IMG/VR virus record: IMGVR_UViG_3300050035_000086
Span: 28,953-92,952 of that record
Direction: 5' to 3' (one strand)
DNA: 64,000 bases
Source: a virus
In this document: positions 7,898 through 60,651 of the stretch, in pieces
Layout: every line of letters starts with the position of its first letter
How positions within the stretch are numbered: the first letter of the stretch is position 1
The notes under the pieces: generated by a model
Told to the model about the DNA's origin: nothing
Seen by the model: the letters and a program-made list of their open reading frames with translations, nothing else
Databases searched by the model: none
Position numbers and translations under genes: made by a program

Positions 7898-8302
7898 ATG
7901 GATCTTATGTTTGTGCGTCCGGCTAAACTGGGAGATGAGACGAAATTTTTGGACTGGTCTGTAGAAAATCCAGATAATGGATTTGATCCAGAGGTTGCTA
8001 AATCTCCGTCTACATTCGTTCTATGTGCTTACGACAAAACGGGAGCAGTAGCTTACCAGCCGGTCCAGCAAGTATTCATGATGGACTCCTACGCGGGCCG
8101 TCCCGGAAATACTAAGTTGCAAACAGCGGTGGCTATGAAGGAATTGTTCCAGGAGACGGTTACCCAAGCACACATAAAAGGCGTGTCCGAAATTTACTAC
8201 CTCGGGACAGAGGTAGGAACCGATGCAATGACTACCAAGCATGTTTTTGAAGAGCTTCCATACAAGGTTTTTCGCGTGAAAGTTGCTAGTCTAGAGGGCT
8301 AA
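7898..8302 (+). CDS. GNAT-like protein preceding the ejection genes
   Basis: VRPAKLGD start and GNAT-like secondary-structure pattern. Position typical of podovirus tail/ejection modules. Confidence 0.45.
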   Translation: MDLMFVRPAKLGDETKFLDWSVENPDNGFDPEVAKSPSTFVLCAYDKTGAVAYQPVQQVFMMDSYAGRPGNTKLQTAVAMKELFQETVTQAHIKGVSEIYYLGTEVGTDAMTTKHVFEELPYKVFRVKVASLEG

Positions 8303-9196
8303 ATGAAGATCAACACATTTTTGGAATTCGTTTGGAGTTCCCGGCAAAATCGATACATACTTGTCCGCAATCAGTCCATTACCTGGACTGGTGGGGTTGC
8401 TCTGTGTAAAGCAGAGGGGCCTAGCTCTGAACAACAAGGAATAGCCTCCTCCCAACAATCTTTCTACAACACGCTACAAAAAGACTACGGAACACAGTTC
8501 GCAAACCAGAGTAATATTTTGAATGCTCTGAACAAATCTTTGTCCCCCATTATAAATGCAGGAGTCGGTCAGTATGGGTTTGGAAATGCTGAGGACGCGG
8601 CAATGCGTACTCAGTCAACTTCGGGAACCGCGAGCGCCTACAGAAGTGCGAAACAGGCGTCTGGGGAAGCGCAAGCAGCGCAAGGCGGAGGAGATACTTT
8701 TATCGGCTCTGGTGTCAAAGCGCAGACAAACGCGCAACTAGCCAATTCTGCCGCTTCTACTGAAGCAAATCAGCAACTAGGAATTACGCAACAGGGGTAC
8801 CAAACCGGAAGATCAAATTATTTCAACGCAGTCAATCAGGAACAAAATGTAGCTAATGCTTATAACCCCTCCGCGTACGGCCAGATGGCGAACTCGGCGG
8901 GATCTGCGGCGTATGGGTCGGCCTCAAACAATCAACAACTAAAAGCCGCAGCAGACGCTGCAAATAATCCTTGGGGACTCGTCGGGGGAGTAGCTGGTGG
9001 CATCGCGGGCTCTTTCGTAGGGATGCCGGGGGCTGGATACGCTCTTGGGTCTTCCTTGGGGGGTGGTTTAAGTGGTGCAACTTCTTCGGGGGGAAACTCT
9101 GGCGGTCTTGCTGGTGGGTTTGGTAATCTAGATACCACAGGAGGATCAACTTTCATGGAGCAGTTGAAGAATTTCGGATCGGGCCTGGGCAGATAA
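8303..9196 (+). CDS. DNA ejection / pilot protein
   Basis: N-terminal ...WTGGVALCK motif, Gln/Ala/Asn-rich helical body, Gly-rich hydrophobic C-terminus. Confidence 0.6.
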   Translation: MKINTFLEFVWSSRQNRYILVRNQSITWTGGVALCKAEGPSSEQQGIASSQQSFYNTLQKDYGTQFANQSNILNALNKSLSPIINAGVGQYGFGNAEDAAMRTQSTSGTASAYRSAKQASGEAQAAQGGGDTFIGSGVKAQTNAQLANSAASTEANQQLGITQQGYQTGRSNYFNAVNQEQNVANAYNPSAYGQMANSAGSAAYGSASNNQQLKAAADAANNPWGLVGGVAGGIAGSFVGMPGAGYALGSSLGGGLSGATSSGGNSGGLAGGFGNLDTTGGSTFMEQLKNFGSGLGR

Positions 9197-9197
9197 T

Positions 9198-9590
9198 ATG
9201 AGCGAACGAAGAATTGAAGCACTGGTTGACGCTATTGCCCACTTACGGGGTTCGTCCACTAACCCGGACTCTGATTTGTACCAGATTCGAAACCCGATTG
9301 GTACTATGAGTTTTTCTCGTCCCGGACGCAATGAGGTAGATGCTGAGGGACACCGCGTGTTTAAATCTTGGTTAGCCGGGTATCGAGCCGCTGTATTTGA
9401 TCTTACCATCAAGTGCAAAGGAGAGTCTCGTGCCAACCTAAAACCTACCGATCTACTCGAAAATCTATTGCGCGTTCTGGGAATTACTGAGAAGCTGGGG
9501 CAAGATCAAGTAGTTAAATTCCTGAAGCGCGCCCTCAAAGACCAATCCATTACCCGGACCACCCCTCTATCATATTTTGTCGAAAACTAA
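9198..9590 (+). CDS. Putative lysozyme-like virion protein
   Basis: AIAH.....RNPIG....GHRVFKSW.AGY.A resembles NNPGN-type lysozyme-like virion proteins. Divergent. Confidence 0.35.
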   Translation: MSERRIEALVDAIAHLRGSSTNPDSDLYQIRNPIGTMSFSRPGRNEVDAEGHRVFKSWLAGYRAAVFDLTIKCKGESRANLKPTDLLENLLRVLGITEKLGQDQVVKFLKRALKDQSITRTTPLSYFVEN

Positions 9591-11260: not shown

Positions 11261-14200
11261 ATGTCTAACTCAGTAGACCTTAGTGGAATCTGGGGGCAAA
11301 CAACCGCCTCCACAGAAACTAATGCTCCTGCTCCTCCAAGCGCTGTCGATTTAAGCAGCATTTGGGGGGCGCAAAAATCATCTCCAGTTGCCCCCACTTC
11401 AACTCCCGGGGCCGCCGACCTCAGCAGCATATGGGGTGGAGGTTCTGCGCGTCCAGATAATGGACAACCTGCCCAACCTATTCAGCATGTTTACCAAGAC
11501 CCAAATCAAAGTTGGTATAAAAGGGCCTGGGACTTCGCACAGACACCGATCACGGAAAGTCTCTTCGGAATGCCAGAAGAAAGAGAAGGGGCTGGTGGCC
11601 TTGAGCGCGGTATAGAACACATTGCATCTGGGTTTACGAGTCCCCTCTCGCTCGCGCTGACCGCTGCCACCTTCGGCACTGGGTCTTTGATCGAAAGCGC
11701 CGGAGCAACTGCCCTCAAAGAAGCCGGACTCTCTACTGCCGAAATTGCAGATGCTGTCAAAGGCTCCCAAGCGGCTCTAGGTGCTCTCAAGGAAGCGAAG
11801 TCAGTGGACCCAGTCATTCAACAAGCTCTGGAAGCGGGAGGGCACGATCTGGGTCTTCTGGATCGGGCTAGGAAACTCGTGTCTCCGTTAAATCGAGACG
11901 CGGAGTTCGGTTCGTCTGCAATTCAGAACGCCCTAAAGGAATCTGGAAAATTCTCCCCAGAAGAACTAGAAGCTCTGGGTAAGGCCGGAGACGCAGTCGC
12001 CGAAGCCAAGGCTGGATTCCACCCAGTTGAAGACGCCGTACGCGAAACAGGCGCAGATGTAGACGTTTGGAAGCGCGCGCAGAAAGCCCTATACGATAAT
12101 GGCCTGACTGAGCAGGACCTATTGTCTAAAAATATGCTCGAAAACGGGGCCTTCCAAGTCCTGCGTCACACGATCCCGGATCTACCTGTCGCTGCTACTG
12201 CTCGAATGGCCAAGACTGCGAATGCTGTTTTGAATGCCGGATTTACCCTCCAGCAGTTTGAAACAGCAGCGGCTATGTCTCCCCGATTCCTCGACGCTCT
12301 CAAAGAAGGGGACACCGATAAAGCTTGGGAGTACGGAACAGAAGCCTTTGCAGGCGGTGCTTTGGGAATCCTCGGGACGCCTCACGCTCTTCACGCAGCG
12401 GGAGAACTGTTCAAACCGCTTCTGGAGACCGACAAGTTCAGACCCAACGACGAGTTTTTGGCAATGGACCGGGCTAACAAGGAACGTGAAGTTCAACATG
12501 CAGTCGGAGAACAAGAATCCATCAATTTGGATAGCCGCGTTCGGAAAATTCTCGGACACGAAACTCCCGGCTTTAAGGATAAGGTATTTGGCCCAAATGC
12601 TGATGTAAAATCACAGAAAGAACTTGAACTAGCTTCTGTGTTTCATCAGGTGGTCACCGGAGGAGACGCTGAAAAAGCGGCTGTTTGGCACGACGCTCTT
12701 GCGGAGGCATTGGGCAAAGACGAGCGCTTGACGAAGAGTCCAGATAATGGACAGTATGGTCCAGCTAATGAAGCCGATGAGTGGGATCAGCTTGAAAACG
12801 AGGTTCATTCTCGAACTGGAAAGGACCCGGCGGACGTTTCTTATGCCGAGTTACAGAAAGCAGGAGTATCTCCAGAACTACTAAACAACTGGGATAAGTA
12901 CACAAAGAGAAACCCGTTTTCAGCCGACACCCCAGAATTGTCTAAATATGCTCGCACACAGACTCTCTCAGGAATCGGAACCGCTAATCCTGTTTTACTT
13001 CTCAACGACTACGCTCACGAACTACTCACCCGTGTTTGTATGAACACTCGGAACTGGTACGGAGCTGAGTTTAACACAGAAGATGTTGGGAAACTGGTGT
13101 CCGCTCTTCGAGAAGAGGCACAAAAAGGAGACAGAGGAAACCTCTCGGTACTTGCGAACGAACTAGAAAAAGCCGCGTCGGGGGGTAGGTCTGTGGTCGC
13201 CGTTAAGAAAATCGGTGGTCTCGCGCAGACATCTACCATTGCTCACGAGCAGACACACGTCTGGCAGACTAAATATCCTCTGACCCCGGAGCAACTGAAG
13301 CCGGTACTCGGTGATCCTCTGTACCGAGATGCCCTAAACGATTTGTACCGCAAAGGATATAAGTCGGATACAGATACGCTTCCAGATGAAATCCTGTCTC
13401 ATCTATCCACTGATGATCGACTTGGGTTATCAAAAACAGAAGCAAAGGACTTGACAAAGAAGTTCTTGTCGTTGTATCCTAAAGAAGCAATATCGGAATT
13501 CCCGAACAGAAATGAAACCACTCTAAATGCCCTGAAGGAGCTAGGATACGATGAGAATATTAACCAGACCGCAAATCGAGGAATACTTTACCAAACGTCA
13601 CGAGTCTTCGGAAACGGAGCGGGGTCTCCGCACCCCTACCTCCCCGACAACATCCGAGAACTCATCGCCGACAACAACTTCAAAGCACTCCCCGATAGCT
13701 ATAAAGCCACTGTCTTAGCCTCTTTAAAGAGAGTTGCTAACGGAGAACTATCTGACCGGGAGCTTGAAGCAGCCAAAGCTCTGAGAGACGAGCAGGCTCG
13801 CAATTTCCAAATAGGATCGTCCAACGATCTTCTGCACTCGTTCGTCCAAGACTACATGACCCGTACCTACAAGGACCTGAATCCAGACGGTAAGGTTGTT
13901 GCGTCCGAAGCCAAGCAGGGTAAGTTCGCTACGAACGTCACGATGGCTCGTCAGCGCGTATATGACTCTCACCTAACCGCCCTTCTGAAATCTCCAAAGC
14001 CAATCGACTTTGATCCGGTGTCTGTAACAGCTAAAGGACGCGGAGAACTCATCAAAGCAGCGGCAAACAAACAGTTGATTGACACTCTCCGCGATCAGTT
14101 CACTCGCGGCTCAGACGGTCGTCCTGCGGTAGTTCTCTCAGGACAAGGCCAAGTTGTGTCTGGACAAAATGGGGAAGACCCTAAAACTTTCATCGACCCA

Positions 14201-16351
14201 AACCGGGTTCGTAAAATCAACATTGCAGATTCAGTAGTCCAGCAACTGGACAAATCAGGAGACCTCCAAAGATTCTTGGACGAAGGAACCATCAAGGACC
14301 TGACTCCATACGTCCATCCATCGAATATCCAAGCAGCTATCGAAAAGTTGGAGGAGCAGTCTACTCGTAAAGAAGCTCAATATGACGAAGTCGGGAACAA
14401 TAAGCTATCAACCGACATCATGTATTTGAAGTCGATGGCAGCTAACAAAGACTACTCAGGACTCAAGGAGTTTAACGACGCGCAGAAGAAGGTTTATGCG
14501 TGGGACCCCCAAGATTACATAAGTCTAAATAACAATGCAATGAAGGGGTGGAACTTCGTAACCAACGATTCTGCTGGGCATAACATCTTGGTCCGGTCAG
14601 ATATTCGTGTCCATCCTGAGTTTGCGGAGTACCTGAAGAACCGTCTGGGTCTGGAACCGTCGGCGGTCGCCAGCAGCGCGGTGGGGAAAGCCTTGCTCGG
14701 AGCCGGGACCAAGATGAAAGAGACGTTGCTGTCTCTATCTCCGTTCCACATGGTTCAGGAAGCGCTACGCGGAATCATGATAGGAATTAACCCGTTCCAC
14801 AAAATTGGTCCGGACATTCTTACCGGGGCTAAGGTAGACCCACTCGACCCTAATTCACCCACGAAGATTAACGTGGGTGTCCGAAACGGACTGACCGTGG
14901 GTACTGACTACAAATCCTTGCAGGACCATTCTGAAGGTGTCGCTGCGGGCGGCGGAATTCTTCGTCTGATCCCCGGAGTCGGGAAACCTCTGTCTAATGC
15001 CATGGACTGGTACCAGTCGTTCTTGTTCAAACGCTATATTCCCGCCCTTAAAGCGCGCGGTTACGAACTTATGTTTGATCGCTACCAAGAGGCGCATCCC
15101 GACTGGGAAATAGACCACGTCGCAAAAGTAGCAGCTACCCACGCCAATAACACGTTTGGTGGAATTAATTGGAAAGCGATGGGCAGATCAGCTACGAATC
15201 AGGACTGGGGGCGCTTATTGCTGCTAGCTCCTGATTGGCTTGAGGCGGAGATGCGCTCTGGGGCCAATCTGTTCAACAAAGATGAAGGCGGACTAGGCCG
15301 TGCGCAAGTCGCCAAGATGGCTCTCGGTTTGTGGGGGGTAGCGCGCGTTCTGAACTACGCTTCTACTGGTAGTTTTCACAACGAGGCTCCCTTTGGGTTA
15401 GCCGTCAAGAACAAAGAAGGCAAGGAAACGGTCTTCGGCATTAGAACTCTACCCACCGACCTTCTTCACGCGGCGTCTGACCCAGTAGGGTTCCTCAAAG
15501 GACGTTTAGCCCCTACCATACGTACGGGGGAAGAACTCCTGTCCCAACGCGACCAGTTTGGAAGAAAGCTGGCTCCAGAAGACTTGTGGGCAGACGTTTT
15601 CAGGAACATGGCTCCTATTCCTGCTCAGACTATAGGACAAATGGTATCGGGGTCCGGGCCTTCTGTAGGCAACCCGGGGCAAGTATGGAAATCTATCGGA
15701 GGCACTGCCCAAACTTATCAGACCCCCGCTCAGAAGCTAGCCGCAGAACTGGCTAGTAATCACAACGAAGATGGCCCCGTGGACTCGTCACAAATGGCTC
15801 GCCATTCTAGAGTTATGCAGCTAGAAGATCAAGTAAGATCAGGAGACCTTTCTTGGCCGGACTTGATGAAATTGACGTATGAGACAGATCAGTTGAAGGA
15901 ATCGGAGCTGAAACATATTCAGCAGAATCTTCAGAAAACGAAGGGGCTGGATTCTTCAATGGCCTCTCTCTACACTAGAGCTTCGAGACTGCCCGCCAAA
16001 GAATACTTGCAACTTTTAGATGTGACAAATCCTTCCGAGAAAACGGCTTTGGTTCCTCTGACAATACAAGTTCAGAGACGGTACCTGACCAAAGCTAAGA
16101 AGGATGAGACCCCCGAAGAGAGACAAAGGGATCCAGTATTCCAGAGACTGTTGAGAACAATCCCTGGGAGAGAAGAAGCTGCTCCGCAGCCGCAGTCTCA
16201 AGCAGCTCCTCCGCCCGTGGTTTCTCCGGCTATACAAAAGGAAGTAGCATATCTCTATACAGCTACTCACCCGAATACTGGGCATAGAGTTGGGTCAAAT
16301 GACGGTCATACGTGGTTTGATCACCAGACGGGAGAACCAATAAATGGCTAG
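11261..16351 (+). CDS. Large DNA ejection / polyvalent protein with HExxH metallopeptidase-like domain
   Basis: 1696 aa, mostly helical. IAHEQTH with a downstream DEILS. Three N-terminal DLS.IWG repeats. Confidence 0.65.
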   Translation: MSNSVDLSGIWGQTTASTETNAPAPPSAVDLSSIWGAQKSSPVAPTSTPGAADLSSIWGGGSARPDNGQPAQPIQHVYQDPNQSWYKRAWDFAQTPITESLFGMPEEREGAGGLERGIEHIASGFTSPLSLALTAATFGTGSLIESAGATALKEAGLSTAEIADAVKGSQAALGALKEAKSVDPVIQQALEAGGHDLGLLDRARKLVSPLNRDAEFGSSAIQNALKESGKFSPEELEALGKAGDAVAEAKAGFHPVEDAVRETGADVDVWKRAQKALYDNGLTEQDLLSKNMLENGAFQVLRHTIPDLPVAATARMAKTANAVLNAGFTLQQFETAAAMSPRFLDALKEGDTDKAWEYGTEAFAGGALGILGTPHALHAAGELFKPLLETDKFRPNDEFLAMDRANKEREVQHAVGEQESINLDSRVRKILGHETPGFKDKVFGPNADVKSQKELELASVFHQVVTGGDAEKAAVWHDALAEALGKDERLTKSPDNGQYGPANEADEWDQLENEVHSRTGKDPADVSYAELQKAGVSPELLNNWDKYTKRNPFSADTPELSKYARTQTLSGIGTANPVLLLNDYAHELLTRVCMNTRNWYGAEFNTEDVGKLVSALREEAQKGDRGNLSVLANELEKAASGGRSVVAVKKIGGLAQTSTIAHEQTHVWQTKYPLTPEQLKPVLGDPLYRDALNDLYRKGYKSDTDTLPDEILSHLSTDDRLGLSKTEAKDLTKKFLSLYPKEAISEFPNRNETTLNALKELGYDENINQTANRGILYQTSRVFGNGAGSPHPYLPDNIRELIADNNFKALPDSYKATVLASLKRVANGELSDRELEAAKALRDEQARNFQIGSSNDLLHSFVQDYMTRTYKDLNPDGKVVASEAKQGKFATNVTMARQRVYDSHLTALLKSPKPIDFDPVSVTAKGRGELIKAAANKQLIDTLRDQFTRGSDGRPAVVLSGQGQVVSGQNGEDPKTFIDPNRVRKINIADSVVQQLDKSGDLQRFLDEGTIKDLTPYVHPSNIQAAIEKLEEQSTRKEAQYDEVGNNKLSTDIMYLKSMAANKDYSGLKEFNDAQKKVYAWDPQDYISLNNNAMKGWNFVTNDSAGHNILVRSDIRVHPEFAEYLKNRLGLEPSAVASSAVGKALLGAGTKMKETLLSLSPFHMVQEALRGIMIGINPFHKIGPDILTGAKVDPLDPNSPTKINVGVRNGLTVGTDYKSLQDHSEGVAAGGGILRLIPGVGKPLSNAMDWYQSFLFKRYIPALKARGYELMFDRYQEAHPDWEIDHVAKVAATHANNTFGGINWKAMGRSATNQDWGRLLLLAPDWLEAEMRSGANLFNKDEGGLGRAQVAKMALGLWGVARVLNYASTGSFHNEAPFGLAVKNKEGKETVFGIRTLPTDLLHAASDPVGFLKGRLAPTIRTGEELLSQRDQFGRKLAPEDLWADVFRNMAPIPAQTIGQMVSGSGPSVGNPGQVWKSIGGTAQTYQTPAQKLAAELASNHNEDGPVDSSQMARHSRVMQLEDQVRSGDLSWPDLMKLTYETDQLKESELKHIQQNLQKTKGLDSSMASLYTRASRLPAKEYLQLLDVTNPSEKTALVPLTIQVQRRYLTKAKKDETPEERQRDPVFQRLLRTIPGREEAAPQPQSQAAPPPVVSPAIQKEVAYLYTATHPNTGHRVGSNDGHTWFDHQTGEPING

Positions 16352-17273
16352 TCCTGGAAATCCATTATCTGGACAACAACCGACTCCTCCGGCGGGCTAC
16401 AAACTTGATGTGACCCCTCCGGAAGGGTATGCGTTGGACCAGAGCGTACCTGAAAGTCAGCAATCGATCCCACCTCCTACACCCAATCTAGCGGCGCAAC
16501 CCCCTGAGGTTCTGCCACAGGCAATGCACCCGGTTCTACAGCAGATATTGAAGGAAAACCAGGGACTCGCTAAAAATTTCAACGCAGACAACACTTCTCT
16601 AGTGTTTGCCAGCGGAGAGAGACAGCAGCGAGGACTCAAGGAAAGAGGAGGTCTAGAATTCTGGCACCCAGAAGGAGAACCTGTTGATAAGGGAGGCGAT
16701 CCGACCTACCCAACTCCACAACTCGGAAAGAATGTTCTTGAAGTATACAGTGATGACTTGAAGAATGACCCAATCTCCCTAAAGCAGGCACTCGTTGGCG
16801 ACTTATTGCACGGAATGACGAGTGATCCTTATTGGAAGAATCTCCGCGACCAGTTTATGCAGAACTTTACTCCGCAGGAGAGGAAACGACAAAAAGATGC
16901 ACAGACGTGGTGGGAAGACGTGAACGGAGATAGACACGCGGAACAAAAGGGAGAGGTTGGACATTCGCTGGGTAATGGAACATACGATGCCTATATTCGA
17001 GGATGGATATTTAATGAGGGGGAGGGAAAACAAGGGCAGATGGAGCAAGGAAATACTATGTATTCCCCCAAACAACTACAAATCTTACAGAAGATGCAGG
17101 AGTATCTAAAAACTGGAAAGATTTCTACTGCCCCACTAAAAAATACCCGTAGTAGGCCAGAAAAGATAGTTCCTAAGAAGGAGCCAGTTCGACCAGAACC
17201 AGATTGGGATGCCAATGACTACAAAAGGAATGGTCTAAAAGTACCTCCTTCTCTAGCTACTCTCAACAAATAG
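16344..17273 (+). CDS. Hypothetical protein, last gene of the virion operon
   Basis: Overlaps the previous stop. N-terminal PP.GY.LD repeats. Confidence 0.55.
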   Translation: MASPGNPLSGQQPTPPAGYKLDVTPPEGYALDQSVPESQQSIPPPTPNLAAQPPEVLPQAMHPVLQQILKENQGLAKNFNADNTSLVFASGERQQRGLKERGGLEFWHPEGEPVDKGGDPTYPTPQLGKNVLEVYSDDLKNDPISLKQALVGDLLHGMTSDPYWKNLRDQFMQNFTPQERKRQKDAQTWWEDVNGDRHAEQKGEVGHSLGNGTYDAYIRGWIFNEGEGKQGQMEQGNTMYSPKQLQILQKMQEYLKTGKISTAPLKNTRSRPEKIVPKKEPVRPEPDWDANDYKRNGLKVPPSLATLNK

Positions 17274-17320: not shown

Positions 17321-17341
17321 TGTGTCCATTATCTGGACCGT

Positions 17342-18249: not shown

Positions 18250-18655
18250 TGTCTATCCTTTCACCTTCCAAGAAGGAGTCAAAGTCCGAATAATGGACAA
18301 CTTGGGGTAAATAATGGAAAATGTTCTCTTCGCCTCCGATCACTACAATCCTCTTGCCTGTACCTAAAGCATATCCAAACTCAGCATGGCGACCGCCTCG
18401 TGGTGTTCCGATAGTGGGGTCCTCTGAAAAGAATACGAACGTGTCGGCGGCGTCGATATCTTCGAGGTCGATGTATGCGGTATGTCGGCAGAACTTAGGC
18501 GTAAACTCGTGAAGATGGGCTGTCTCTGATCCCGTCTCCTCAAGCCATCGACTCGTTACTTTGATGTTGTGTTCGAGAAGAATAGGAACCAAAGACTTGA
18601 TTTCCTTCTTCCTGGAATATCTAGCAGCTAAGTATACCTTCATCATCTCCTCCAA
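18230..18655 (-). CDS. Nucleoside 2-deoxyribosyltransferase-like protein
   Basis: KVYLAA, DLEDIDAAD, GGRHAEFGYALG.GKRIVVIG. Confidence 0.8.
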   Translation of the reverse strand: MEEMMKVYLAARYSRKKEIKSLVPILLEHNIKVTSRWLEETGSETAHLHEFTPKFCRHTAYIDLEDIDAADTFVFFSEDPTIGTPRGGRHAEFGYALGTGKRIVVIGGEENIFHYLPQVVHYSDFDSFLEGERIDNVIASD

Positions 18656-20253: not shown

Positions 20254-20261
20254 TATCTGGA

Positions 20262-23351: not shown

Positions 23352-23682
23352 AAACTTCCTTTCGAACAACGCCACTGGGCCGGAGACGTGACGCTCCAAA
23401 TCTGTTTCATCGGCTTTCCACATGCCGGACAAAAAGGCGGTTGGTCGCTTATCTTGACCAGCTTCTCCGCCTTCTCTCCGCAGTATACGCATTGGTAGTT
23501 GTAAACCGGCATTTAGAACACCCTCGCAAGAGTATATCCAATTGAGGCCCCTACCAAAAGTCCAGCAATTGCCTCCCACCAACCAAAGTGGTAAACTTCG
23601 GTGGAGATCAAAGCAGAATGAATCTCCTCCATCTTTTCGTACAGCTCTTTGACAGTCAGTCTTTTCCTAGCCATGTTACCTC

Positions 23683-25487: not shown

Positions 25488-25488
25488 T

Positions 25489-32320: not shown

Positions 32321-32355
32321 TATTCCTCCTCGTCCATTATCTGGACACAAAACAA

Positions 32356-33619: not shown

Positions 33620-33622
33620 AGC

Positions 33623-40919: not shown

Positions 40920-40959
40920 ATAACAAACAACGTAAACAAGATTAAGAGTACAAATCCGG

Positions 40960-46445: not shown

Positions 46446-46476
46446 AGGCGATCTCCTTTGTCCAGATAATGGACGG

Positions 46477-49301: not shown

Positions 49302-49339
49302 TGCGCCTTCTTGTATAAGGATGTCATGGTAGTCTCCTA

Positions 49340-49370
49340 GTCCATTATCTGGACTAAGAGTATTATAGCA
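49340..49370 (-). promoter_or_regulatory. Extended -10 promoter with the 15-bp motif at the predicted +1
   Basis: TGCTATAAT at 49370-49362; exact motif at 49354-49340; then TAGGAG RBS. Confidence 0.55.
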
Positions 49371-49619
49371 CATCTACCCGTTGACATGAACCACAAAACG
49401 CGACTTACACCAGTTGCAGTATCCGATAAATATATGCCTCCCGCCTTGGTCAAAACCATCTTCCGGTATCCGTCCGCAAACCGGGCAGTATCGCGCGGGT
49501 CTCTTGTCGCGCTCCTTTCTCTCCTCTTCGTCGGCGCAAAGAGAGGCTTCAATCCCCTCTGGAGAGTATGGGTCGAGTCCGGTACGGAAATATTCTATTG
49601 ACCTCTTTTGCGCCATTGT

Positions 49620-50549
49620 CTACCTCCCCATCACCTTAGTACACTTAAACAGCAAACCTGTTAAGCTCGCATAGGCTGTTCCATCTGCGAACGAAGCGTT
49701 TCCCACGCCAACCAAACACGCCGCGAGACCGTCTGCTCTTGGTCCGGGTTCTGAGTCGAGCAGCGCCCATCTCAGCTTAGCAGAAACTACAGCTACCATC
49801 GCCCGGTAGTCGGCGGTCTTGATTTGCTTCAAAAGAGAAGCTGTTTTAGTCCAGTTTCCGGACAGTACTGCTTTGGCGACTTCCGGGTAGAGAGGCTCGT
49901 GTTCGCTTCCGTGGATTGCTTCTTCGAGAGGGACCCCGGACAAATACTGATCCAAGACTCCTAAGATTTCTCGCGGGGCGTTTACTTGCTTGTCGTGCAG
50001 GAACTTGAGGACGTTAGAACCCTCTTCGGCGGACACGTTTCCCGCTAGAGCCTTGACTACCAGCTTGGCCCGGTCTGCGTCTGAGAGGGGCTTTAATTCG
50101 AAGGTAGCTGCTGCCGCTCGGCTCTTGATGGCAGGTTCTACCTTTTCAGGTTTGTCCGTGGTCAAAATCCAGAGCGCCGGATTCTTCTCCATCGGGTCTT
50201 TGAGAGCATTCTGCGCTGCGATTGTCACTTGGTGAAATTCGTTCAGAATTATGACCCGGCGTCGTCCGGAAAATGGACGAGACGAGGAGATTTCAGCCAG
50301 TGACCGAGCGAAGTCCACCCCGTTGTCTGTTGAGGCGTTGATCTCGTGCAGACCGTCTCCTTCTGCTCCTGCGAGTTGCGCGACGATCAGAGCCAGAGTG
50401 GTCTTACCCGTGCCCGGAGGTCCATAGAACAGGAAGACGTTGGGCCAGTTATCCTTCTCTGCGAAGGACCTGATGGCCTTCTTGGCCGCTTCCTGCCCCA
50501 ACACATCTTCCAATTTCTGGGGTCGAAGTTCTAGAGCTAGTTGACCCAT
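49620..50549 (-). CDS. dnaX: DNA polymerase III gamma/tau-like clamp loader AAA+ subunit
   Basis: LRPQKLEDVLGQ, FYGPPGTGKTT, EINAS..NGVD, IILNEFH...AQNAL, IKSR. Confidence 0.85.
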   Translation of the reverse strand: MGQLALELRPQKLEDVLGQEAAKKAIRSFAEKDNWPNVFLFYGPPGTGKTTLALIVAQLAGAEGDGLHEINASTDNGVDFARSLAEISSSRPFSGRRRVIILNEFHQVTIAAQNALKDPMEKNPALWILTTDKPEKVEPAIKSRAAAATFELKPLSDADRAKLVVKALAGNVSAEEGSNVLKFLHDKQVNAPREILGVLDQYLSGVPLEEAIHGSEHEPLYPEVAKAVLSGNWTKTASLLKQIKTADYRAMVAVVSAKLRWALLDSEPGPRADGLAACLVGVGNASFADGTAYASLTGLLFKCTKVMGR

Positions 50550-52375: not shown

Positions 52376-53647
52376 TCTTCCTCCTCCACGGTCCATTTAG
52401 TGGACAAAAGTTCCTCTATGTAAAACCCGAACGGCTCTGGATTTTCTCTTTCACTGTTTAGAAGCATACCCTCGTCGTCCATTACGGCCACGAACCCGTA
52501 CTCGGACACGAGCTTCTTCTTGGGAGTCATTCTTTTCGCCGCATCAATGATGTTCATTCTTCTCCTTCTTCTACAACAGTATTATAGCACGACTTGCAGA
52601 GCAGCAGTCCATTATTCGGATCGAACAACTCGTCAGTCAGGTCTCCGCACCCATCGCAGTACTCATCTTCCAGTTCCGGCCCGTCGTCCGGGCTTAGGAG
52701 GCCGCAGTACTCCGGTTCGCTTTCGCTCTTGTATTCTCGTTTGCTGGTAGCGCCCATAGCCCCCCTAAGTGAACATGTACAGAGAATCATATTCTCCGCT
52801 GTACAAAACTCCACAGCGATGGAGTTCGATTAGCTCGTCTTCGGTTGCGACGGCGAGAAGGCTGTCGGGACTCGTGTCCAAATAGATTTCGTCGTATCCG
52901 GCGTCCGATACAATGTCAGAGTTTCCCGGAACTAGCTTGTCCAGTAGCAGGAAAGCATGAAGATCCGGGCGGTTGGACAGCTTGTGCGTAACACGGTTAA
53001 ATTTGAGAAACTCGTCTTCGTGTTCCTCGTAGAAGCTTTCTAAGTCGGTAATCATATCTTCCTCCGTCCAGATAATGGACTACTCGCTCCTTAGAGCGGC
53101 TCTGTCTTTTTGGTCAATGTGTTCGATGAACTGGGGAGTAGCTCCGCGTTGGAGCAAGTCCTCGGTCTCGTACTTCTTTTTGTCCAAAAGGCGTTTCTCC
53201 AAGCGTTTTACCTTGCGTTGGAGCTTCTCGATTTCCTTTTGCTGCTTGGTGATTATTTCGGCGTCTGTCAAGCTGGTTTCAGCGGTCCTGGTCCGCCGCC
53301 TCCTTCAATGAAGTCTTTGTAAATAGTCCACGTCAGAAACCCAAATGCAAAGATACAGAACACCAAAGACAACCAAGGGGCGTTCAGAAGGCCGAAGGCG
53401 ACTCCGAATACGAAACAGACATAACCCATTACGCGAGATTCAAGAGAGGTCATTCCTCCTCCTCGGGTGTCAATTCGTTCGTATAGTCTTGCAGCAAGTC
53501 CCAGATGTGCGCTCTGATTCCCTGCTGCCGGATAGCTTGGTTAATGCTTTCGTTTCCGAAGTCGGTATCCGGCTCGGATTCGTAGGCTTCCATGATTTCG
53601 TCTACTAAGGTTTCAATGTCCATTTCTCTCCTTGTCCATTATCTGGA

Positions 53648-54046
53648 CTAGTCCCACAAATCTCCGTACCATTTTGCAAACAAGTGGAGGCCCTTATTTT
53701 GGGTTTTGGTAAGTTCTTTGAGTTGACCCCTGTTTTCATACTTAGCGTCGGCTATGGACCGAGAAGCGAAGAATCCCACTTGAATTTCAGTAAGAATCTT
53801 GTTCCACTCTTCTTCAGTAATGCTCATCGGGATAGAGTGGGTATGATACTTGAGGTGGCCAATTGCTTCTGGAAGGACCTCATTCAAGTAGTCATACAAA
53901 CTCCAGGTATCGCAGTTCGCCCACCCGCGAAGACCTCTCTGGACGAAATACTTCACAGCGTAGCAGTAGGTCTTGGGACTGAGGTACTGTTTCCACCAAG
54001 GCCAGCAGAACGTTCGGTATTCGGGCTTCAAACCAAAGTAGGGCAT
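53648..54046 (-). CDS. Conserved phage hypothetical protein
   Basis: DTWSL..YL...L...I..L...EEW..IL.EI...F...GL.LFAKWY..LWD. Confidence 0.65.
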   Translation of the reverse strand: MPYFGLKPEYRTFCWPWWKQYLSPKTYCYAVKYFVQRGLRGWANCDTWSLYDYLNEVLPEAIGHLKYHTHSIPMSITEEEWNKILTEIQVGFFASRSIADAKYENRGQLKELTKTQNKGLHLFAKWYGDLWD

Positions 54047-54260
54047 TTCATTCTCCTATCCATTAGCTGGACTAAATTTAAACCTCTTACTGTCAAACCC
54101 CTGCCAGTCGAAACCAAACGGACCTGGACCAAGGTGAATTGACAGACCGAACAGCCCAATGGTAACACCCCTGGAAATTCGACTGACAAATATTCCGTTC
54201 CGTCGAACCAAAGGATGCTGAACCCAGGCTGAAATTTTCATTTGTTCCTCCAATGTTGTC

Positions 54261-54297: not shown

Positions 54298-56520
54298 TCA
54301 ATCTTTTTTATATTCTTTTGCCTCATATCCAGCCGCTTTTAGAGGTATGCCGTCGGGCATCCAAGACGGTTTCTTCGTCATGCACTCACACAGCTTCGCT
54401 ACGGTTAGAGGCGAGTTCTCGGGAACCAAAGTGATAAGCTCATCGTAGGTACTTCCAATAATCTCGAACCCCGCTTGGTCGGCCTCGTGCATCCCGCTAA
54501 CCAGGATGTCTCTCGCCCACGACTGGTCGGCATTTTCAAAGATTTTCCCCCCGTGCGTCGGAACTCTTCCCCAATGGGTGGAATTTTGCTCCTTGCCATA
54601 GTAGGAGATTTTCTCGCTGGTTATTTCTTTTCCATTCCAGACATACTTCTCTTCCTCCAGGGTCGGGTCCAGATAATGGATACTCCGCCCACTCGGGAGC
54701 TTGAGTTCCAAGACCTTGGCTCCGTGGCAAAGAAAAGACACGACGGGATCATATATTTTACGACCTTTTTCGGCAAACCACTCTTCTTCTCTTTTGGTAT
54801 GCGGGACCCCTACCCCGAACAGCTTACCGGGGTTCTTGATGGCGCGTCTTGCCGCCCGTTCCATGTCCTTCCAGGTCCGGGGTATCTCTGGATACACAGA
54901 ACGGAAAATATCGATGGCTTTGACTGCTTCTTCTCGGGTCATCACGACGCCCATCGTGCGCGCGTAGGCCAACAACCCTGTCCATACTTTGTTTCCACCT
55001 CCCATAACAGAGCCACACTCCGGGCAAAGGGGAGGCAGGGGTTGCTTGTAGTTCTTCTTGAGTCCACACCGGGAGCACTCCCACTCGTAGAATTCGTCTC
55101 CGGCTCCTAGCCCAAACCCAGAGCCAAGGGTGGCAGGTTTGCACATAGTCCGTTTGGCTTTGTTTCCGCGCCCTTCATCATACTCAGCTTCCAGTTCTGC
55201 ATACGTCATTTTGTAGAAGTGCTGTCCAAAATCGAGGTAAGGGTCTCGTCCTTCCCGGAAAACACGAAGTACGGGGTCGCTGTGAGCGATAAAACCGGCT
55301 CCAACGTTTTCGATTGCCGAGAGATCAGCCGTCACCAGCTTCATTCCCTCGGGGGCACGAAACGCGGCGCGAACTGTCGAACCAACTACGTCAAGTGGCT
55401 TTCCAAACTCCTTCAAAATGGAATCATAGTCAGCGGAGCGGACCAACTCGATGGCTCGCTGCATATTTTTCTCGACATACTTTACCGGCTTCGGAAGATT
55501 TCCCATGTTGACGCCGTGCGCAGCCCAGCGGCCCGTCCTTGCTGCTCCCATGAAGGTGTACTGGTGCCGCAGTCTCCCGTCCGCGCTCACCATGTCCGCG
55601 ATGTTGGTGTACTTCCGTACGGCGGACTTAGATGTTTGTCCACGCAGTAGTAGGGCTTCTTTCGCTTCCTCGGTGAGGTCACATTCGCCGGACATTGCCC
55701 GGGCCACGAAAGGTTTACCAAGCGAAGAGAACCCGTAATTATGCTCCCGAAGCCAAGGCAAAATCTGGCTAACAGAATTTGGATTGTCTAAACCGGTGAG
55801 TTCTTTGAGGCGGGCGGTGAGTCGTTCCATCTCCTTTTGGGTGATGAATTTTCCACCGTTGACCAGAGGCATGTCAACGCTCCAGCCGGTTTCGTTGATC
55901 TTCTGGTCCAAAAACCACGCCTCCCATTCCTGGTCGGGCAGGGGAAAGTCCTTCAGCTTCTTTACGGCAATAGTTCTTTCAGCTTCTGTGTCTCGTATGC
56001 CATACTTACAAAACAAGGCCCAGTCCTCTGGGTCTGTGTTCCAGTCTCGGTAAGAGGCGGCGCTGAGGCCAAACAACGTGTCGTTCCCCCCGAAAGTTTC
56101 GGGGGAGCAGAACTTCTTGATGAGACGTTTTCCTTCTTTTAGTTTAGCTTCTGATTCTTTAAGCCCTAAAATTTGACCGGCTTCGTCTAGTCCTCCGGGC
56201 AAGGACAGGTAGCGCGCGCGGACCATCGAGCAGCGCCACTCGTTGATTGGTTTGTGGATTCCCAGAAAACGACGTGCTGCATTCCTCTCGAATTGCGCAC
56301 CCCAGGCGTTGGCAATCACAAACGGGTCCATCAAAGCCTCGACCAATTCAGTGGGGGGCTTAGGGTCCAAATGAGGTTGCCATAAATGGACACGCCCATT
56401 ATCGATGGCGTGCTGGCTCATGATAAGTTCAGTAGAAGGGTCATCAAAATAATTAGCGAGGCCGACAACTTCCAAGTCAGCCTCGCTTCGAGTCTCCACG
56501 TCCCAATGTAGTTCTGTCAT
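54298..56520 (-). CDS. polA: Family A DNA polymerase with 3'-5' exonuclease
   Basis: DVETRS, AQFER, YGIRD (exonuclease); GAARTGRWA, ADLSAIE (A), R..CK...LG.GFG (B), FENADQ..ARD, YDEL (C). Confidence 0.92.
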   Translation of the reverse strand: MTELHWDVETRSEADLEVVGLANYFDDPSTELIMSQHAIDNGRVHLWQPHLDPKPPTELVEALMDPFVIANAWGAQFERNAARRFLGIHKPINEWRCSMVRARYLSLPGGLDEAGQILGLKESEAKLKEGKRLIKKFCSPETFGGNDTLFGLSAASYRDWNTDPEDWALFCKYGIRDTEAERTIAVKKLKDFPLPDQEWEAWFLDQKINETGWSVDMPLVNGGKFITQKEMERLTARLKELTGLDNPNSVSQILPWLREHNYGFSSLGKPFVARAMSGECDLTEEAKEALLLRGQTSKSAVRKYTNIADMVSADGRLRHQYTFMGAARTGRWAAHGVNMGNLPKPVKYVEKNMQRAIELVRSADYDSILKEFGKPLDVVGSTVRAAFRAPEGMKLVTADLSAIENVGAGFIAHSDPVLRVFREGRDPYLDFGQHFYKMTYAELEAEYDEGRGNKAKRTMCKPATLGSGFGLGAGDEFYEWECSRCGLKKNYKQPLPPLCPECGSVMGGGNKVWTGLLAYARTMGVVMTREEAVKAIDIFRSVYPEIPRTWKDMERAARRAIKNPGKLFGVGVPHTKREEEWFAEKGRKIYDPVVSFLCHGAKVLELKLPSGRSIHYLDPTLEEEKYVWNGKEITSEKISYYGKEQNSTHWGRVPTHGGKIFENADQSWARDILVSGMHEADQAGFEIIGSTYDELITLVPENSPLTVAKLCECMTKKPSWMPDGIPLKAAGYEAKEYKKD

Positions 56521-56535
56521 CTTTTCCTTTGTCCA

Positions 56536-56904
56536 TTATTCGGACGGTTTTTCCAAAATCACGGAAGCGTAATAGTTTCCTTCTTTGACGACAACGGGCC
56601 GGTCTTTGAGAATTTCTCGGACGGCCTCAGCGCGCTCGGGGTAATTCTTATCCCAAAGTCCCGAGTCAATGTCCAAAACTACGCTTACCCACTTGACGGG
56701 TTTTTGAGTCGTGGGCGGAACTAGAGGATCGTCAATCGCGGAGAAGTTGAGCGAGTAATAGGATTTTCCACCTAGAGCAAAAGCAATGTCATCCAAATAT
56801 CCGTAGTGAGTTCCCAGATCGTGTACCGAACGTCCCTCGTAGTCTCCTTCGGTGGTTACGTGCCACCAGCCTAATGCTTTATACTGCTTACGGCTTCCGC
56901 TCAT
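56536..56904 (-). CDS. Hypothetical protein
   Basis: AAGGAG RBS; WHVTTEGD.EGRS..DLG...G..DDIAFAL motif. Confidence 0.6.
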   Translation of the reverse strand: MSGSRKQYKALGWWHVTTEGDYEGRSVHDLGTHYGYLDDIAFALGGKSYYSLNFSAIDDPLVPPTTQKPVKWVSVVLDIDSGLWDKNYPERAEAVREILKDRPVVVKEGNYYASVILEKPSE

Positions 56905-57712: not shown

Positions 57713-58149
57713 TCATACTTCTTCTCCTAGTCTTTCCAGCAACTCACGAGCGTCTGCCAGAGCGCGGCAAGACGTGCAGTAGCTTGTGGAATCTTCGGTG
57801 TGGTCTATTTCCAACTCCGCAGACAGAGCGCGGACGGCCTTGACTACTTCCTCGTAGTCCAGATAATGGACGAACGGCCCCTGCGGGTCTTGAAACAGGA
57901 TGTTCGCGCCTCGGTCTGTGTATCGGGTGGTCATATATCTTCTCCCAGATCAACGAGGGCCTTTTCCATGCGCCTTTTGTAGGCCGGGTGTTCTCCCCAG
58001 CGATCGAGGTCTAGGATGGCTTCTCGAAGAGTGACGACCAACTTCGCGTAGTCCGAATAGTGGACAAACTCTCCTTCGGGGTCTTCGCACATTTCGGGAT
58101 TACCGTCTACGTAGTAGGGGTTGGGGATCTCTGTGTACCGTTTGGTCAT
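57713..58149 (-). other. Two tandem paralogous small ORFs (57931-58149, 57713-57934)
   Basis: Both start MT.RYT and share DP.G.FVHY.DY...V..LR. Confidence 0.7.
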
Positions 58150-59526
58150 TGTTCCTCCCTTGCTCGTTTTCTGTACTGGTCCAGAGAGGCGAGCACCCGG
58201 GGTTCAAGAAAGATCACGTTGTCCGCTTCTAGTTGCTCATGGTGGCCGGTCGTGAGCATAATGCTCCCGTCTTCTTCGGCGGTCGCGTAGGCCCCGTCCC
58301 CGAGATATTGTGGTCCGATCATACGCCCTCCTCATCTTCAGCAGTTGTAGGAACGCGCTCCTTGTATCGGGCTATCCACTTTCGACCAGACACTATCGCT
58401 TCATGTTTGCGATCTGCATCCACTCCTTCTACGGCCAGAGCCGTCACACATTTGGTGATTGCTTTCACCGCTGATGCCAATTCTCGATTGCGATTGGTCA
58501 GCGCCATGATAAGATCGTCAATCAACCCTTGGTCAAATTCACCCATCTCTCCTCCTAAACCTGGAACATCTGTCTGTACTCGAAGTAGTCTTTCGCATCC
58601 GCCGTGAAACGTTCTTCGACTGACCCCGGACGTTTGTCTGCGAAGACATACCAAGAGTGCATGTGTCGAATTCCGCGCGCGCTCTTGGCCATCTGATTGC
58701 AGAACTCGTTTACGAAGATCAGGAGTTTGGTTTCGTTGTCCATTATTTGGATTCCTCCGGTTCTGCCTGTCTTCCTGTTGGGTTTCCGTTTGCATCAAAG
58801 CAGCTAAACAGATGTGTGGGAAGATGTACATACTTCCCAGTTGGCTGCGGGTCGATATGGACCTTGGACTTGTTCTTCTCAATTGGTTCTCGGCAGTATT
58901 TGCAGATCACAGCGCCTCCTCTACGGTCTTGCGTTGATTGCTTCGTTCTTGTGCAGAAAGTTTCCGATCACATCTACTGCTGGGAGGTCTTCCTCAAAGA
59001 TCAGTGATCCGGGGTAAAGCGGAGCACCCCCTTTTAGGTGGTTGTATATGTCGGTGAGCAAGGCGATGACCTCGTTAAGTTGCAGCTTAGCCTGAAAAAG
59101 CTGGTCAAGGTGCGAGACGTATCCATCTCCTGGCCTCGACTTCTCCCAAACTTCATCCCAAATTGGGTGTCCCGGCTTAATTCCGTTTACCATTACTCCT
59201 CCTCAAAACTACAACTACTTTACCACGTTGGTGCTGTTGTCGTTATCGCGAGAGTGCCTAAGGGTTGAGGGCGGAATACGCCGTTGACGTGCACTGATCC
59301 AGTAACCTTGTCGCTTCTTCTTGAGATAGGTCATAAGCACGCGAGAAAGATCGTATTACTTCCAGCGCCTTTTCAAGCTGGCCGACGCGCTCTTCAAGGT
59401 AGCGATTTCGCGCCAACGCTGCGTCAAGCGTTCCTTTAAGGCTTACGTCGGCAATGCGATTTAGATTTGTCATTCCGATCCTTTCATAAGGCACTGTAGT
59501 GCCAGCGTTTGTGTTCCTTATCTGGA

Positions 59527-60651
59527 CTACACACAGTCTACCACGTTGTCTGGCGTTTGTCCAGAGGATTCAAGAATTTTTCGGACACGGTCTTGCTGTC
59601 CAGCTGTGATGGCTGAGTAGTATTTCTCAACAGTCTGACACGAATCTCCGATCAGCTTAGACACGTCAAACAGCGAAGCGCCGCGCGCTAGGAGAGAACA
59701 CACGAGCGTTGTGCGAAGTTTATGCGGGAAGCAATCCTCAACTCCGGCACACTTCCCCAACCGGGCAAGCATCTTGTACAACCGCGCCCGAGTTAGGCCA
59801 CCAAGGATAGGGAGGTTGGAGTTCTTATCCGCCGGGACTGCGCTGGCTAACCTAAGCAGCAATTCTCCGTGTAGCGGAATTTGCACCCAGGTCCGTCTCT
59901 TTTTTGTCTGCCAAGTCAGCGTCTTCGTTGTCCAGTTAATGGACGACCACGTTACCGCTGCCGCGTCCGATCCACGCATACCCGTCCAGCGGAGCAGAGC
60001 AAAGGGTAGCTGGTCCTCATCTGTTAGGCAGGATTCTAGGCGTTCCATTTCTTCCGGGGTAAACGGAACCGCGTCCGGCTTCTTCTCTTCAGTCTTGTGC
60101 TTGATCTTTAGGGGCGACTGTCTGATGAGTCCTTCTCCCTGGGCGAAGTTGAAGACCGACTGGAGCACTGTGTAATCGGTCTGGATTCCTTTTCCGTTTC
60201 CGCCGCGCTTGAGTATGTCCTCTTTTCGCTGGACCAGATAATCTTCGACTCTTGCAGAGGAAATATCCCCCAGAGTTTTTACGTCGTGGTTCGCGAGGTA
60301 CTGGAAGAACATGGTGGCAGTTCCGGCATACAGGTCCCGGCTGCGCTCAGCCAGTTCTCCCAACTTGACTCGGCGGTCCAACTTGTCGGTGAATGCTGTT
60401 TCAAATTCGGACAATTCAGGACTGGGTTTGATGCCTCGGTTCGCCGTGAGGATTTCCCACGAGGCTTTTGGAAGCACCGTCTTGAGCGTGTGCCAGTGGT
60501 TTGACTCAGGACCCTCGGCTAGAGCGGCCCCGATCTGGCGAGAGAGGGTCCGAGCCGCTTGGGGAAGACGAGTCCCAAGAGAAAATCGGAGGCGTTTGCC
60601 CCCGACAGTCTCCGAGAAAGTGTATACTTTTCCGCGTTTAACGATTGTCAA
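59527..60651 (-). CDS. int: Tyrosine recombinase / integrase
   Basis: LLRWTGMRGSD, QTKK, PHKLRTT, VSKLIGDS...VEKYY; N-terminal arm-like segment and SAM-like core. Confidence 0.88.
   Translation of the reverse strand: MTIVKRGKVYTFSETVGGKRLRFSLGTRLPQAARTLSRQIGAALAEGPESNHWHTLKTVLPKASWEILTANRGIKPSPELSEFETAFTDKLDRRVKLGELAERSRDLYAGTATMFFQYLANHDVKTLGDISSARVEDYLVQRKEDILKRGGNGKGIQTDYTVLQSVFNFAQGEGLIRQSPLKIKHKTEEKKPDAVPFTPEEMERLESCLTDEDQLPFALLRWTGMRGSDAAAVTWSSINWTTKTLTWQTKKRRTWVQIPLHGELLLRLASAVPADKNSNLPILGGLTRARLYKMLARLGKCAGVEDCFPHKLRTTLVCSLLARGASLFDVSKLIGDSCQTVEKYYSAITAGQQDRVRKILESSGQTPDNVVDCV

Follow-up and report, generated by a model that had tools for sequence, protein, structure and literature searches.

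Short repeats dispersed along a genome are known in a few cultured phages, and only the stoperators of Cluster A mycobacteriophages have a known function. A repeat of this kind, the 15-mer GTCCAGATAATGGAC, is described here in an uncultured phage represented by the 92,952-bp IMG/VR viral contig IMGVR_UViG_3300050035_000086, whose final 64 kb (contig positions 28,953 to 92,952) are referred to as the window and numbered from 1 to 64,000. The closest analogue of the 15-mer is the repeat of the Cluster O mycobacteriophages (Corndog and its relatives), a 17-bp dyad-symmetric sequence present in 34 copies, at more than 30 per ~70 kb (PMC4351075). Its copies lie in intergenic regions, at the 5' ends of genes and in mid-gene, follow no orientation rule and are absent from the hosts; they are thought to bind a dimeric protein, occupy mostly syntenic sites, are lost by single substitutions, and their function has gone unexplained since 2015 (PMC4351075).

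The 15-mer resembles this repeat in its inverted arms around an A/T-rich asymmetric centre, in density (~0.5 per kb there, 0.3-0.6 here), in lying both between and within genes (54% at gene boundaries and 46% deep in genes here) and in having no orientation rule (54 sense to 41 antisense among our copies deep in genes). Both are also private to a lineage, which in our case comprises at least 25 related contigs, the cellular hits being single among the matches listed and the host possibly unsampled. The sequences, in contrast, are unrelated, and arms of 7 bp with a 3-bp spacer there correspond to 5-bp arms with a conserved 5-bp core here, making the two analogues and not homologues; the host phylum differs too, and the lineage studied here is uncultured. 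The five Cluster O phages are near-identical, whereas deep conservation, codon-level selection, even spacing, inversions of the core (flips) and reuse of the motif's stop and start codons have, of the two repeats, been shown only for the 15-mer. Its selection at fixed protein sequence, site retention at ~50% identity, flips, even spacing and economy at gene junctions constitute the first quantitative evolutionary footprint for such a repeat.

The Cluster A stoperators (L5, Bxb1) are asymmetric 13-bp sites, bound by a monomer, oriented with transcription, inactive if inverted and mainly intergenic (PMC9283540, PMC6550527), and the KorB operators of plasmid RK2 are scattered palindromic sites of long-range silencing (PMC11790492). 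Published phage and plasmid repeats of such kind have been interpreted as protein-binding sites (PMC4351075, PMC9283540, PMC11790492). With the stoperators, the 15-mer shares dozens of sites at a similar density in a temperate phage, consensus drift between relatives, a possible logic of global silencing, and sites at promoters and in short intergenic gaps (here p = 9e-8 for gene boundaries, and five of 46 copies 7-9 nt after a -10 hexamer). Unlike them, it is a near-palindrome with only four of 15 positions breaking the dyad, not the asymmetric site of a monomer; half of its copies lie in genes, those deep in genes are neutral in orientation, those at boundaries are 73% and not ~100% sense, and flips occur. 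A stoperator-type helix-turn-helix repressor was not found among the ~60 proteins scanned, many small open reading frames (ORFs) lying outside that scan.

Noc-binding sites and parS are palindromes bound by dimers of ParB-type helix-turn-helix proteins, are independent of orientation and serve the organisation of a replicon. Arrays of KorB, Noc and parS sites consist of palindromes of 13-16 bp distributed over the replicon, often in genes, and the 15-bp near-palindrome is likewise evenly spread; moreover, the modelled fold of a 242-aa candidate binder may resemble the ParB-type DNA-binding domain. In contrast to the ParB-family arrays, a CTPase domain was undetected in this candidate, the copies per kb are far more numerous and the core is asymmetric. 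DNA uptake sequences, Chi and HIP1 are words that characterise cellular genomes; they measure 5-12 nt and are for the most part strand-polar. The first-pass annotation of the window, made from the sequence, had compared the repeat with these words; the analogy holds in that selection on DNA maintains a short word at high density and that the word is overprinted by substitution on coding DNA in several frames, and it fails for the length of 15 bp and the restriction to a phage lineage, the cellular matches listed having at most one copy per stretch and including no enriched genome (the host is possibly unsampled). Lambdoid boxB/nut sites number ~2 per genome and occur in sense orientation only. 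Transcribed in sense, the 15-mer would likewise yield a hairpin of 15 nt, a purine-rich pentaloop on a stem of 5 bp, but it differs from boxB in its ~60 copies, a third of them antisense, and in common variants that break the loop or the stem.

The 15-mer, its architecture and its abundance

Copies were scored at 0-3 mismatches to the 15-mer; gene calls were taken from a simple caller, and their start codons are approximate. The window contained 58 copies, against 1.5 expected and a maximum of five in dinucleotide shuffles, and the whole contig contained 74, of which 24 were exact, with 37 on each strand. Two inverted 5-bp arms (GTCCA) flank an asymmetric 5-bp core, and the dyad is broken only at positions 6/10 and 7/9. 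Positions 5 and 6 accept either purine (R), and a transition is tolerated symmetrically at the outermost base of both arms. Outside the 15 bp the information content falls to zero at once, with no flanking signal, and the consensus was the same in six genomes, namely the present one (G000) and five relatives fetched whole (G001-G005).

The recurrent peptides reported earlier for in-gene copies were traced to this single 15-mer: all of the 24 coordinates carry it (0-3 mismatches), and each copy, read in frame with the ORF that it overlaps, gives the named peptide, in sense for PDNG/PNNG and the VQIMD-like peptides and in antisense for PLSG/PFSG, the HYLD-like peptides and SINWT. At 34121-34135 (-, one mismatch) the copy stands and its VQIMD-like peptide probably does not, since family homology begins directly after the motif ATG, which is therefore the probable start codon of a DUF1643 ORF and would leave V-Q-I untranslated. 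The copies at 52607-52621 (-, PNNG) and 58051-58065 (+, VHYSD) are weak, with three mismatches each, and those at 22898, 24280 and 16360 fall within a few codons of one end or the other of their ORFs. The gene names clamp-loader AAA+ (DnaX), RtcB, family-A polymerase (PolA) and tyrosine integrase were upheld by Pfam or tblastn; the ORF called DnaN had no Pfam hit and matched PHROG 947 (DNA polymerase processivity factor, E = 2e-22), and is referred to below as the clamp. A junction class that comprises about half of all copies was missing from the earlier list.

Selection on the DNA word within conserved genes

When synonymous codons were permuted within each gene, which alters neither the proteins nor the codon usage, the expected number of exact in-gene copies was 0.25 and the observed number 13; for one-mismatch copies the values were 1.9 and 24. 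Places in the proteome whose peptide is able to encode the exact motif numbered 14, against 0.05 in residue-shuffled proteomes, and 13 of them carried the exact motif, the remaining one an accepted position-5 variant. The codons demanded by the motif include rare ones (ATA, 17% of Ile; TTA, 7% of Leu), and the probability for a motif peptide to be spelled throughout with the motif's codons by chance was 0.2-3.6%, depending on the peptide. Synonymous positions at the motif sites are thus fixed, rare ATA and TTA codons included, as the overprinting proposed in the first-pass annotation would have it. Chance or protein-driven recurrence was ruled out by the dinucleotide, synonymous-codon and residue shuffles, and the three codon and peptide controls indicate that the peptides exist because of the DNA word and not the reverse. 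Under DNA-level selection on the 15-mer, conserved replication genes have had both codons and amino acids altered, which shows that core replication proteins of a virus can have their sequences constrained by a DNA array acting in cis.

Conservation of sites among related phages

The phage family is uncultured and temperate, with genomes of ~100 kb (93-110 kb). An exact-word scan of viral contigs together with a search for clamp relatives yielded at least 25 related viral contigs that share the motif, which is conserved across the lineage. The five fully fetched relatives had the same consensus at 0.3-0.6 sites per kb, and 17 out of 17 clamp-encoding contigs carried it at 0.2-1.0 per kb, with clamp identity down to 47%. 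No match to cultured phages was obtained with 20 kb by megablast, and PolA was only 35% identical to its nearest cultured relatives. In a cellular scan (596 Gb), the matches listed were single hits per stretch without a recurring taxon, as chance predicts.

At protein identities of 40-70%, 15 out of 33 ungapped orthologous in-gene positions (~45%) kept the motif, retained sites typically having 13-15 of 15 nt identical against a same-gene background of 8.4. Core sites of fixed position were found in the clamp, the 242-aa protein, a PD-(D/E)XK nuclease, RecT, a DUF1376 protein and two ORFs of the structural block. The clamp copy at 27447-27461 (-, exact, sense VQIMD) showed 14-15 of 15 identical nucleotides in four relatives at 51-55% protein identity; the copy at 26500-26514 (-, exact, sense VQIMD), inside the gene for the 242-aa protein, was kept in four of four relatives, and 25 of 56 homologues of this protein had a motif-compatible peptide there. 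The nuclease copy (35816-35830, -, two mismatches, sense VQVMD) was also kept in four of four relatives, the RecT copy (47674-47688, -, two mismatches, sense PNNG) in G002 and G003, and the DUF1376 copy (32551-32565, -, one mismatch, sense VQIVD) in G001, G002 and G004.

At two orthologous places the core was inverted with the arms in phase. At 11451-11465 (+, exact), in a linker of a 1696-aa ORF, the present genome, G002 and G003 encode PDNG or PNNG in sense, whereas G001 has an exact copy in the opposite orientation (antisense, PLSG). At 8374-8388 (-, one mismatch), within ORF 8303-9196, the antisense SITWT of the present genome is kept in G001, G002 and G004, the four genomes reading SI[ITF]WT, whereas G003 has the flipped core and reads SEKWT. 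Compensatory site turnover within the same gene was not seen (odds ratio 0.8), and a pure density model, of which such turnover would be the sign, was rejected.

Gene junctions, orientation and spacing

Copies located between genes or within 30 nt of a gene end represented 54% of the total, against 22% for random positions (p = 9e-8), and the remaining 46% lay deep in genes. Positions 8-10 of the sense motif read TAA and positions 10-12 read ATG. In the six genomes (pooled counts from relatives, here and below, are interdependent), 24 copies provided an overlapping stop and start, dozens more using one of the two. Both codons are used at 39525-39539 (-), where the motif TAA is the upstream stop, the motif ATG the downstream start and a Shine-Dalgarno (SD) sequence abuts motif base 1, and in the same way at 39791-39805 (-) and at 58738-58752 (-), where the motif's own stop and start serve. 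At 20248-20262 (-, exact) the last base of the upstream stop codon coincides with motif base 1, and a DHH phosphoesterase ORF can begin at the motif ATG, which at 1494-1508 (+, one mismatch, identical in G001) is the likely start of a cupin ORF. Annotation pipelines have to reckon with a motif that carries genuine start and stop codons.

A second arrangement was present in at least 14 genes of this genome, including PolA: a stop codon lies within the motif or precedes it by 0-9 nt, the SD sequence follows the motif after 0-3 nt, and the start codon comes 8-16 nt (mostly 10-12) past the end of the motif. The order holds for either motif orientation, and the copies that abut an SD sequence amounted to 46 across the six genomes, 28 sense and 18 antisense. 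The motif TAA stops the upstream ORF ahead of the SD and ATG of PolA at 56531-56545 (-, two mismatches), and ahead of those of a 60-aa ORF heading the integrase operon at 61064-61078 (-, exact). Copies between a stop codon and the SD with its start codon were found at 46460-46474 (+, exact, intergenic, antisense, GTG start), 53066-53080 (+, exact, antisense, the stop ending on motif base 1) and 53634-53648 (-, exact, sense), and copies directly 5' of SD and ATG at 42646-42660 (+, two mismatches, antisense) and 54058-54072 (-, two mismatches). The antisense copy at 22898-22912 (+, exact) combines the C-terminal tail of an endonuclease VII (EndoVII) ORF with a position directly 5' of the next SD and ATG, and the sense PDNG copy at 24280-24294 (-, exact; kept in G001 and G004) does so with the tail of a 105-aa ORF and the next SD and GTG. 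The PDNG-frame sense copy at 33027-33041 (-, two mismatches) immediately precedes, inside ORF 32356-33534, a strong SD and an in-frame ATG (33015, -), which suggest a nested 219-aa product of the DUF1376 gene.

Most SD-abutting copies were inside operons with no promoter nearby. A -10 hexamer preceded the start of five of the 46 by 7-9 nt, compared with 2.4% among control gene starts (p = 0.011); two of these hexamers are perfect extended -10 elements, and the spacing from -10 to motif is that of an operator. Textbook extended -10 promoters (TGnTATAAT) were noted on the minus strand at 32347-32370 and 49355-49380, each ending 7-8 nt before a motif copy. The first of these copies (32332-32346, -, exact) lies between the promoter and the SD and ATG of ORF 31742-32320, and the second (49340-49354, -, exact) is 7 nt downstream of the extended -10-like hexamer; after the latter, SD and ATG are out of frame with ORF 48840-49373, and a short leader ORF or a frameshift is possible.

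Orientation was neutral among the copies deep in genes (54 sense, 41 antisense; p = 0.22, not significant), all five open frames being used, and biased at boundaries, where 73% were sense (p = 7e-7). We interpret the boundary bias as economy, since the sense form alone brings a stop and a start at no cost. Spacing in the present genome was more even than random (coefficient of variation 0.71 against 0.98; largest gap at most 4.4 kb), and the coefficient was 0.56-0.71 in five of the six genomes. The suggestion of the first-pass annotation that site density itself may matter agrees with this evenness, but it is incomplete: position counts too, since core sites are fixed over deep divergence, in-gene compensatory turnover is lacking and boundaries hold 54% of copies instead of 22%.

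Origin of the copies by substitution

The copies arose by point substitution under DNA-level selection, as had been proposed from the absence of frameshifts. The RtcB copy (43805-43819, -, exact, sense VQIMD) aligned without gaps to KQLVD of the solved Pyrococcus RtcB, a homologue without the motif, and the PolA copy (54667-54681, +, one mismatch, antisense IHYLD) aligned in the same way to MHYFK, MYYHR, LHYMR and LHYID of cultured-phage and family relatives. SIIWT matched SVMWG/S in distant relatives, and SINWT of the integrase (59930-59944, +, one mismatch, antisense), kept in G005, matched SVDFQ of G002. Between close relatives (~82% nucleotide identity), 39 out of 40 mapped sites were retained and no 15-nt indel was observed among the 40; target duplications were absent from the motif flanks. 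Some copies lie in indel-rich linkers, none of them as a clean five-codon insert. We thus found neither homologues that share peptide and codons in the absence of the motif nor insertions with target duplications, and a mobile 15-nt insertion was largely refuted by the ungapped outgroups and the absence of indels and duplications.

A candidate binding protein

The foremost candidate for a motif binder, a tentative and rather doubtful assignment, is the conserved 242-aa protein encoded at 26221-26949 (-), next to the clamp gene. Its modelled fold appears to resemble a ParB/Noc-like DNA-binding domain, the structural match being limited to that domain; neither the candidate nor its 56 homologues had a Pfam hit, so that no N-terminal ParB/Srx CTPase domain was detected. 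Foldseek against PDB, a PDB sequence profile and Pfam on the 56 homologues gave nothing significant, and a protein atlas returned a single lead (0.88), to DUF3102. A first fold, computed from five sequences, had a predicted local distance difference test score (pLDDT) of 49 and was discarded. In a 304-aa relative, P0220, the family domain is preceded by a fused FtsK-gamma winged-helix domain at the N-terminus (E = 5e-8, above Pfam's cut-off). Co-occurrence of candidate genes and the motif was uninformative, as every clamp-bearing relative has both. The at least 25 contigs and the 286 clusters of the candidate's family define a large uncultured phage family in which a binder can be sought. Contigs encoding the 242-aa family number roughly 100.

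Interpretation of the array

There is about an even chance, in our judgement, that the 15-mer array consists of orientation-independent protein-binding sites on duplex DNA whose binder is encoded by the phage lineage. A protein with two half-sites on duplex DNA is suggested by the sharp 15-bp block, the dyad arms with their symmetric tolerance, the conservation of both core orientations, the flips and the neutrality, and since a lineage-private, long-conserved motif calls for a binder conserved with the lineage, that protein would probably be phage-encoded. The two GTCCA arms would be read as half-sites made unequal by the conserved asymmetric core, binding would be independent of how the site faces transcription, and the sites, repeated about every 1.5 kb, would let the array act globally, in silencing or organisation as KorB operators, Noc sites and stoperators do, and not as a single-gene switch. 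With next to no spare DNA available in the genome, sites would sit where they cost least, that is, at gene junctions, where the motif TAA or ATG is reused or the gap before the ribosome-binding site is occupied, and in tolerant peptides changed by point mutation. That a CTPase-less ParB/Noc-like 242-aa protein binds the ~60 even, near-palindromic sites and silences or organises the whole 93-110-kb genome, KorB/Noc-style, is unlikely; so is its corollary that the demand of this protein for sites rewrote residues of clamp, polymerase, RtcB, RecT and integrase and made the stop/start junction cassette. Several observations weigh against orientation-independent protein-binding sites. A search near the integrase revealed no classical helix-turn-helix repressor; strict conservation of an asymmetric core is unexpected in a site indifferent to orientation; the fixed spacing from motif to SD and start (8-16 nt, mostly 10-12, in at least 14 genes) makes an RNA or translational role possible; the 73% sense bias at boundaries could likewise mean such a role and not coding economy; and a motif-enriched host may exist beyond the matches listed, which are the scope of the cellular result.

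The main rival to silencing or organisation is a role in replication, recombination or nicking. As a mark for such a transaction, which we consider fairly improbable, the sites would be boxes of the DUF1376 initiator for titration or control, in the way of DnaA boxes, targets of HNH/EndoVII nicking comparable to the programmed nicks of T5-like phages, or recombination signals of RecT and the nuclease. This draws on all the DNA-level evidence for protein-binding sites, the HNH/EndoVII enzymes, RecT and the PD-(D/E)XK nuclease are encoded, the conserved in-gene core sites are mainly in the replication and recombination module, and the region of the DUF1376 initiator-like gene has the densest run (five to six copies in a row in one orientation, 32332-35816). 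This cluster, however, is not significant against the over-even overall distribution, and known nick and Chi-type signals are strand-polar, whereas the in-gene copies are orientation-neutral. Neutrality also bears on the improbable alternative that the functional form is an RNA hairpin of lambdoid boxB size and shape (5-bp stem, 5-nt loop) in translation-initiation regions, read by a protein or governing ribosome access. In favour of such a hairpin, the sense form folds (-5.5 kcal/mol), 46 copies in the six genomes are immediately 5' of SD and start and others contain the start codon, and 73% of boundary copies are sense. Nevertheless, 18 of the 46 SD-abutting copies are antisense and 28 sense, the two loop sequences show equal conservation, needlessly for a reader of one loop, the G5 variant (a wobble in sense, a mismatch in antisense) is equally common in both (41% and 34%), the hairpin is weak in common variants (-3.4 kcal/mol), and flips occur at orthologous places.

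A host factor could instead read the site, as a regulator or nucleoid protein recruited by the phage, or the site could be a self-mark protecting phage DNA against a host or phage nuclease; of the readings considered, this one stands nearest to the analogy with uptake sequences, Chi and HIP1. A protective or marking role would suit the even spread of sites over the genome, the phage binder is only a candidate, and reference genomes probably lack the host. We rate this reading as improbable too: the cellular matches listed in 596 Gb are all single hits per stretch with no recurring taxon, 15 bp is far longer than known uptake, Chi or HIP1 signals, and conservation over phages at 47% clamp identity demands an equally conserved partner. 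A promoter element for a phage sigma-like factor, or a -10-like element for the host polymerase, has a slight chance of being correct; the sigma-70 region 2 and 4 protein (24975-25487) is conserved in all relatives, the core is a near-consensus -10 hexamer on both strands and many copies are just upstream of SD and start codon, but about half of the copies lie in genes with no orientation rule, many contain the start codon itself, which would be incompatible with a promoter firing downstream, the motif at good promoters lies downstream of the -10 and is not the -10, and a -35 partner or flanking signal is absent. Insertion of a tiny mobile palindromic element, or spread by gene conversion without selection on individual copies, is highly improbable. 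Fifteen nucleotides are five codons, whose insertion would preserve the frame, the copies at 27887, 25686 and 11451 are in indel-rich linkers, and template switching at the arms could account for the core flips; against this stand the ungapped alignment of the RtcB and PolA copies to non-motif homologues, near-cognate peptides at the same columns in distant orthologues, no 15-nt presence/absence difference among 40 sites of close relatives, and the absence of both target duplications and flanking conservation.

Remaining copies and neighbouring genes

Among the other sense copies within genes, that at 7968-7982 (+, two mismatches, PDNG frame) was absent at the orthologous place in relatives, that at 12738-12752 (+, exact, PDNG frame) is in the 1696-aa ORF, and that at 62924-62938 (-, two mismatches) encodes VQLVD or provides a possible GTG start. 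A weak copy at 5028-5042 (+, two mismatches) encodes SPETG in a 1219-aa ORF and is probably a chance near-match, since SPETG is conserved in relatives without the motif. Antisense PLSG is encoded in codons 6-11 of ORF 16344-17273 (16360-16374, -, one mismatch), in a 134-aa Zn/HNH-like ORF (25686-25700, +, two mismatches; the relatives' site is 22 codons away) and in a variable loop of the clamp (27887-27901, +, one mismatch), and antisense PFSG in the clamp loader (50264-50278, +, two mismatches). The remaining antisense copies encode VHYSD (18284-18298, +, two mismatches; kept in G001, lost in G003), VRYLD (21917-21931, +, one mismatch; exact in G001), VHYPD (37853-37867, +, one mismatch) and VHYLD (57857-57871, +, exact). 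Outside genes, copies were located in a convergent intergenic region beside a terminator-like hairpin (17324-17338, -, exact), 17 nt upstream of a TATAAT hexamer (33605-33619, -, two mismatches), immediately after the integrase stop codon (59513-59527, -, degenerate) and at 62722-62736 (-, two mismatches).

All relatives retain the sigma-70-like protein (24975-25487, -), which has 170 aa and regions 2 and 4, recognised by weak hits in Pfam and PHROG. The 242-aa protein, the DUF1376 protein and proteins of 134, 123 and 105 aa are likewise shared by every motif-bearing relative. The only reverse-strand gene of the structural block (638-1249, -) encodes a Mom-family DNA-modification protein (Pfam PF25680, E = 1e-30) with no counterpart in the five related genomes; its identity as Mom ruled out this lone gene as a repressor, and a link between it and the motif was rejected because the gene is absent from relatives and the commonest motif variants remove the adenine context. 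A helicase (PHROG 1967) spans 38416-42328 (-) in two ORFs, 41252-42328 corresponding to profile positions 147-443 and 38416-39249 to positions 481-674, and between its halves are an HNH endonuclease gene (40344-40919) and five small ORFs with motif copies as junctions; the split could be a mobile insertion or an intron- or intein-like interruption. HNH/EndoVII-like genes are unusually many in the replication block, at least five (28314-29501, 22884-23582, 40344-40919, 44061-44900 and 25489-25893). From 63691 to 64000, the end of the contig, a 27-bp unit is repeated in tandem in at least 10 copies (period 27 or 54), giving a 9-residue repeat in a minus-strand ORF. At the start of the contig, upstream of the window (contig positions 173-1284), nine tRNA genes (Phe, Pro, Arg, Trp, two Lys, Arg, Val and Ile) form a cluster, and an exact motif copy lies ~85 nt past the last of them.

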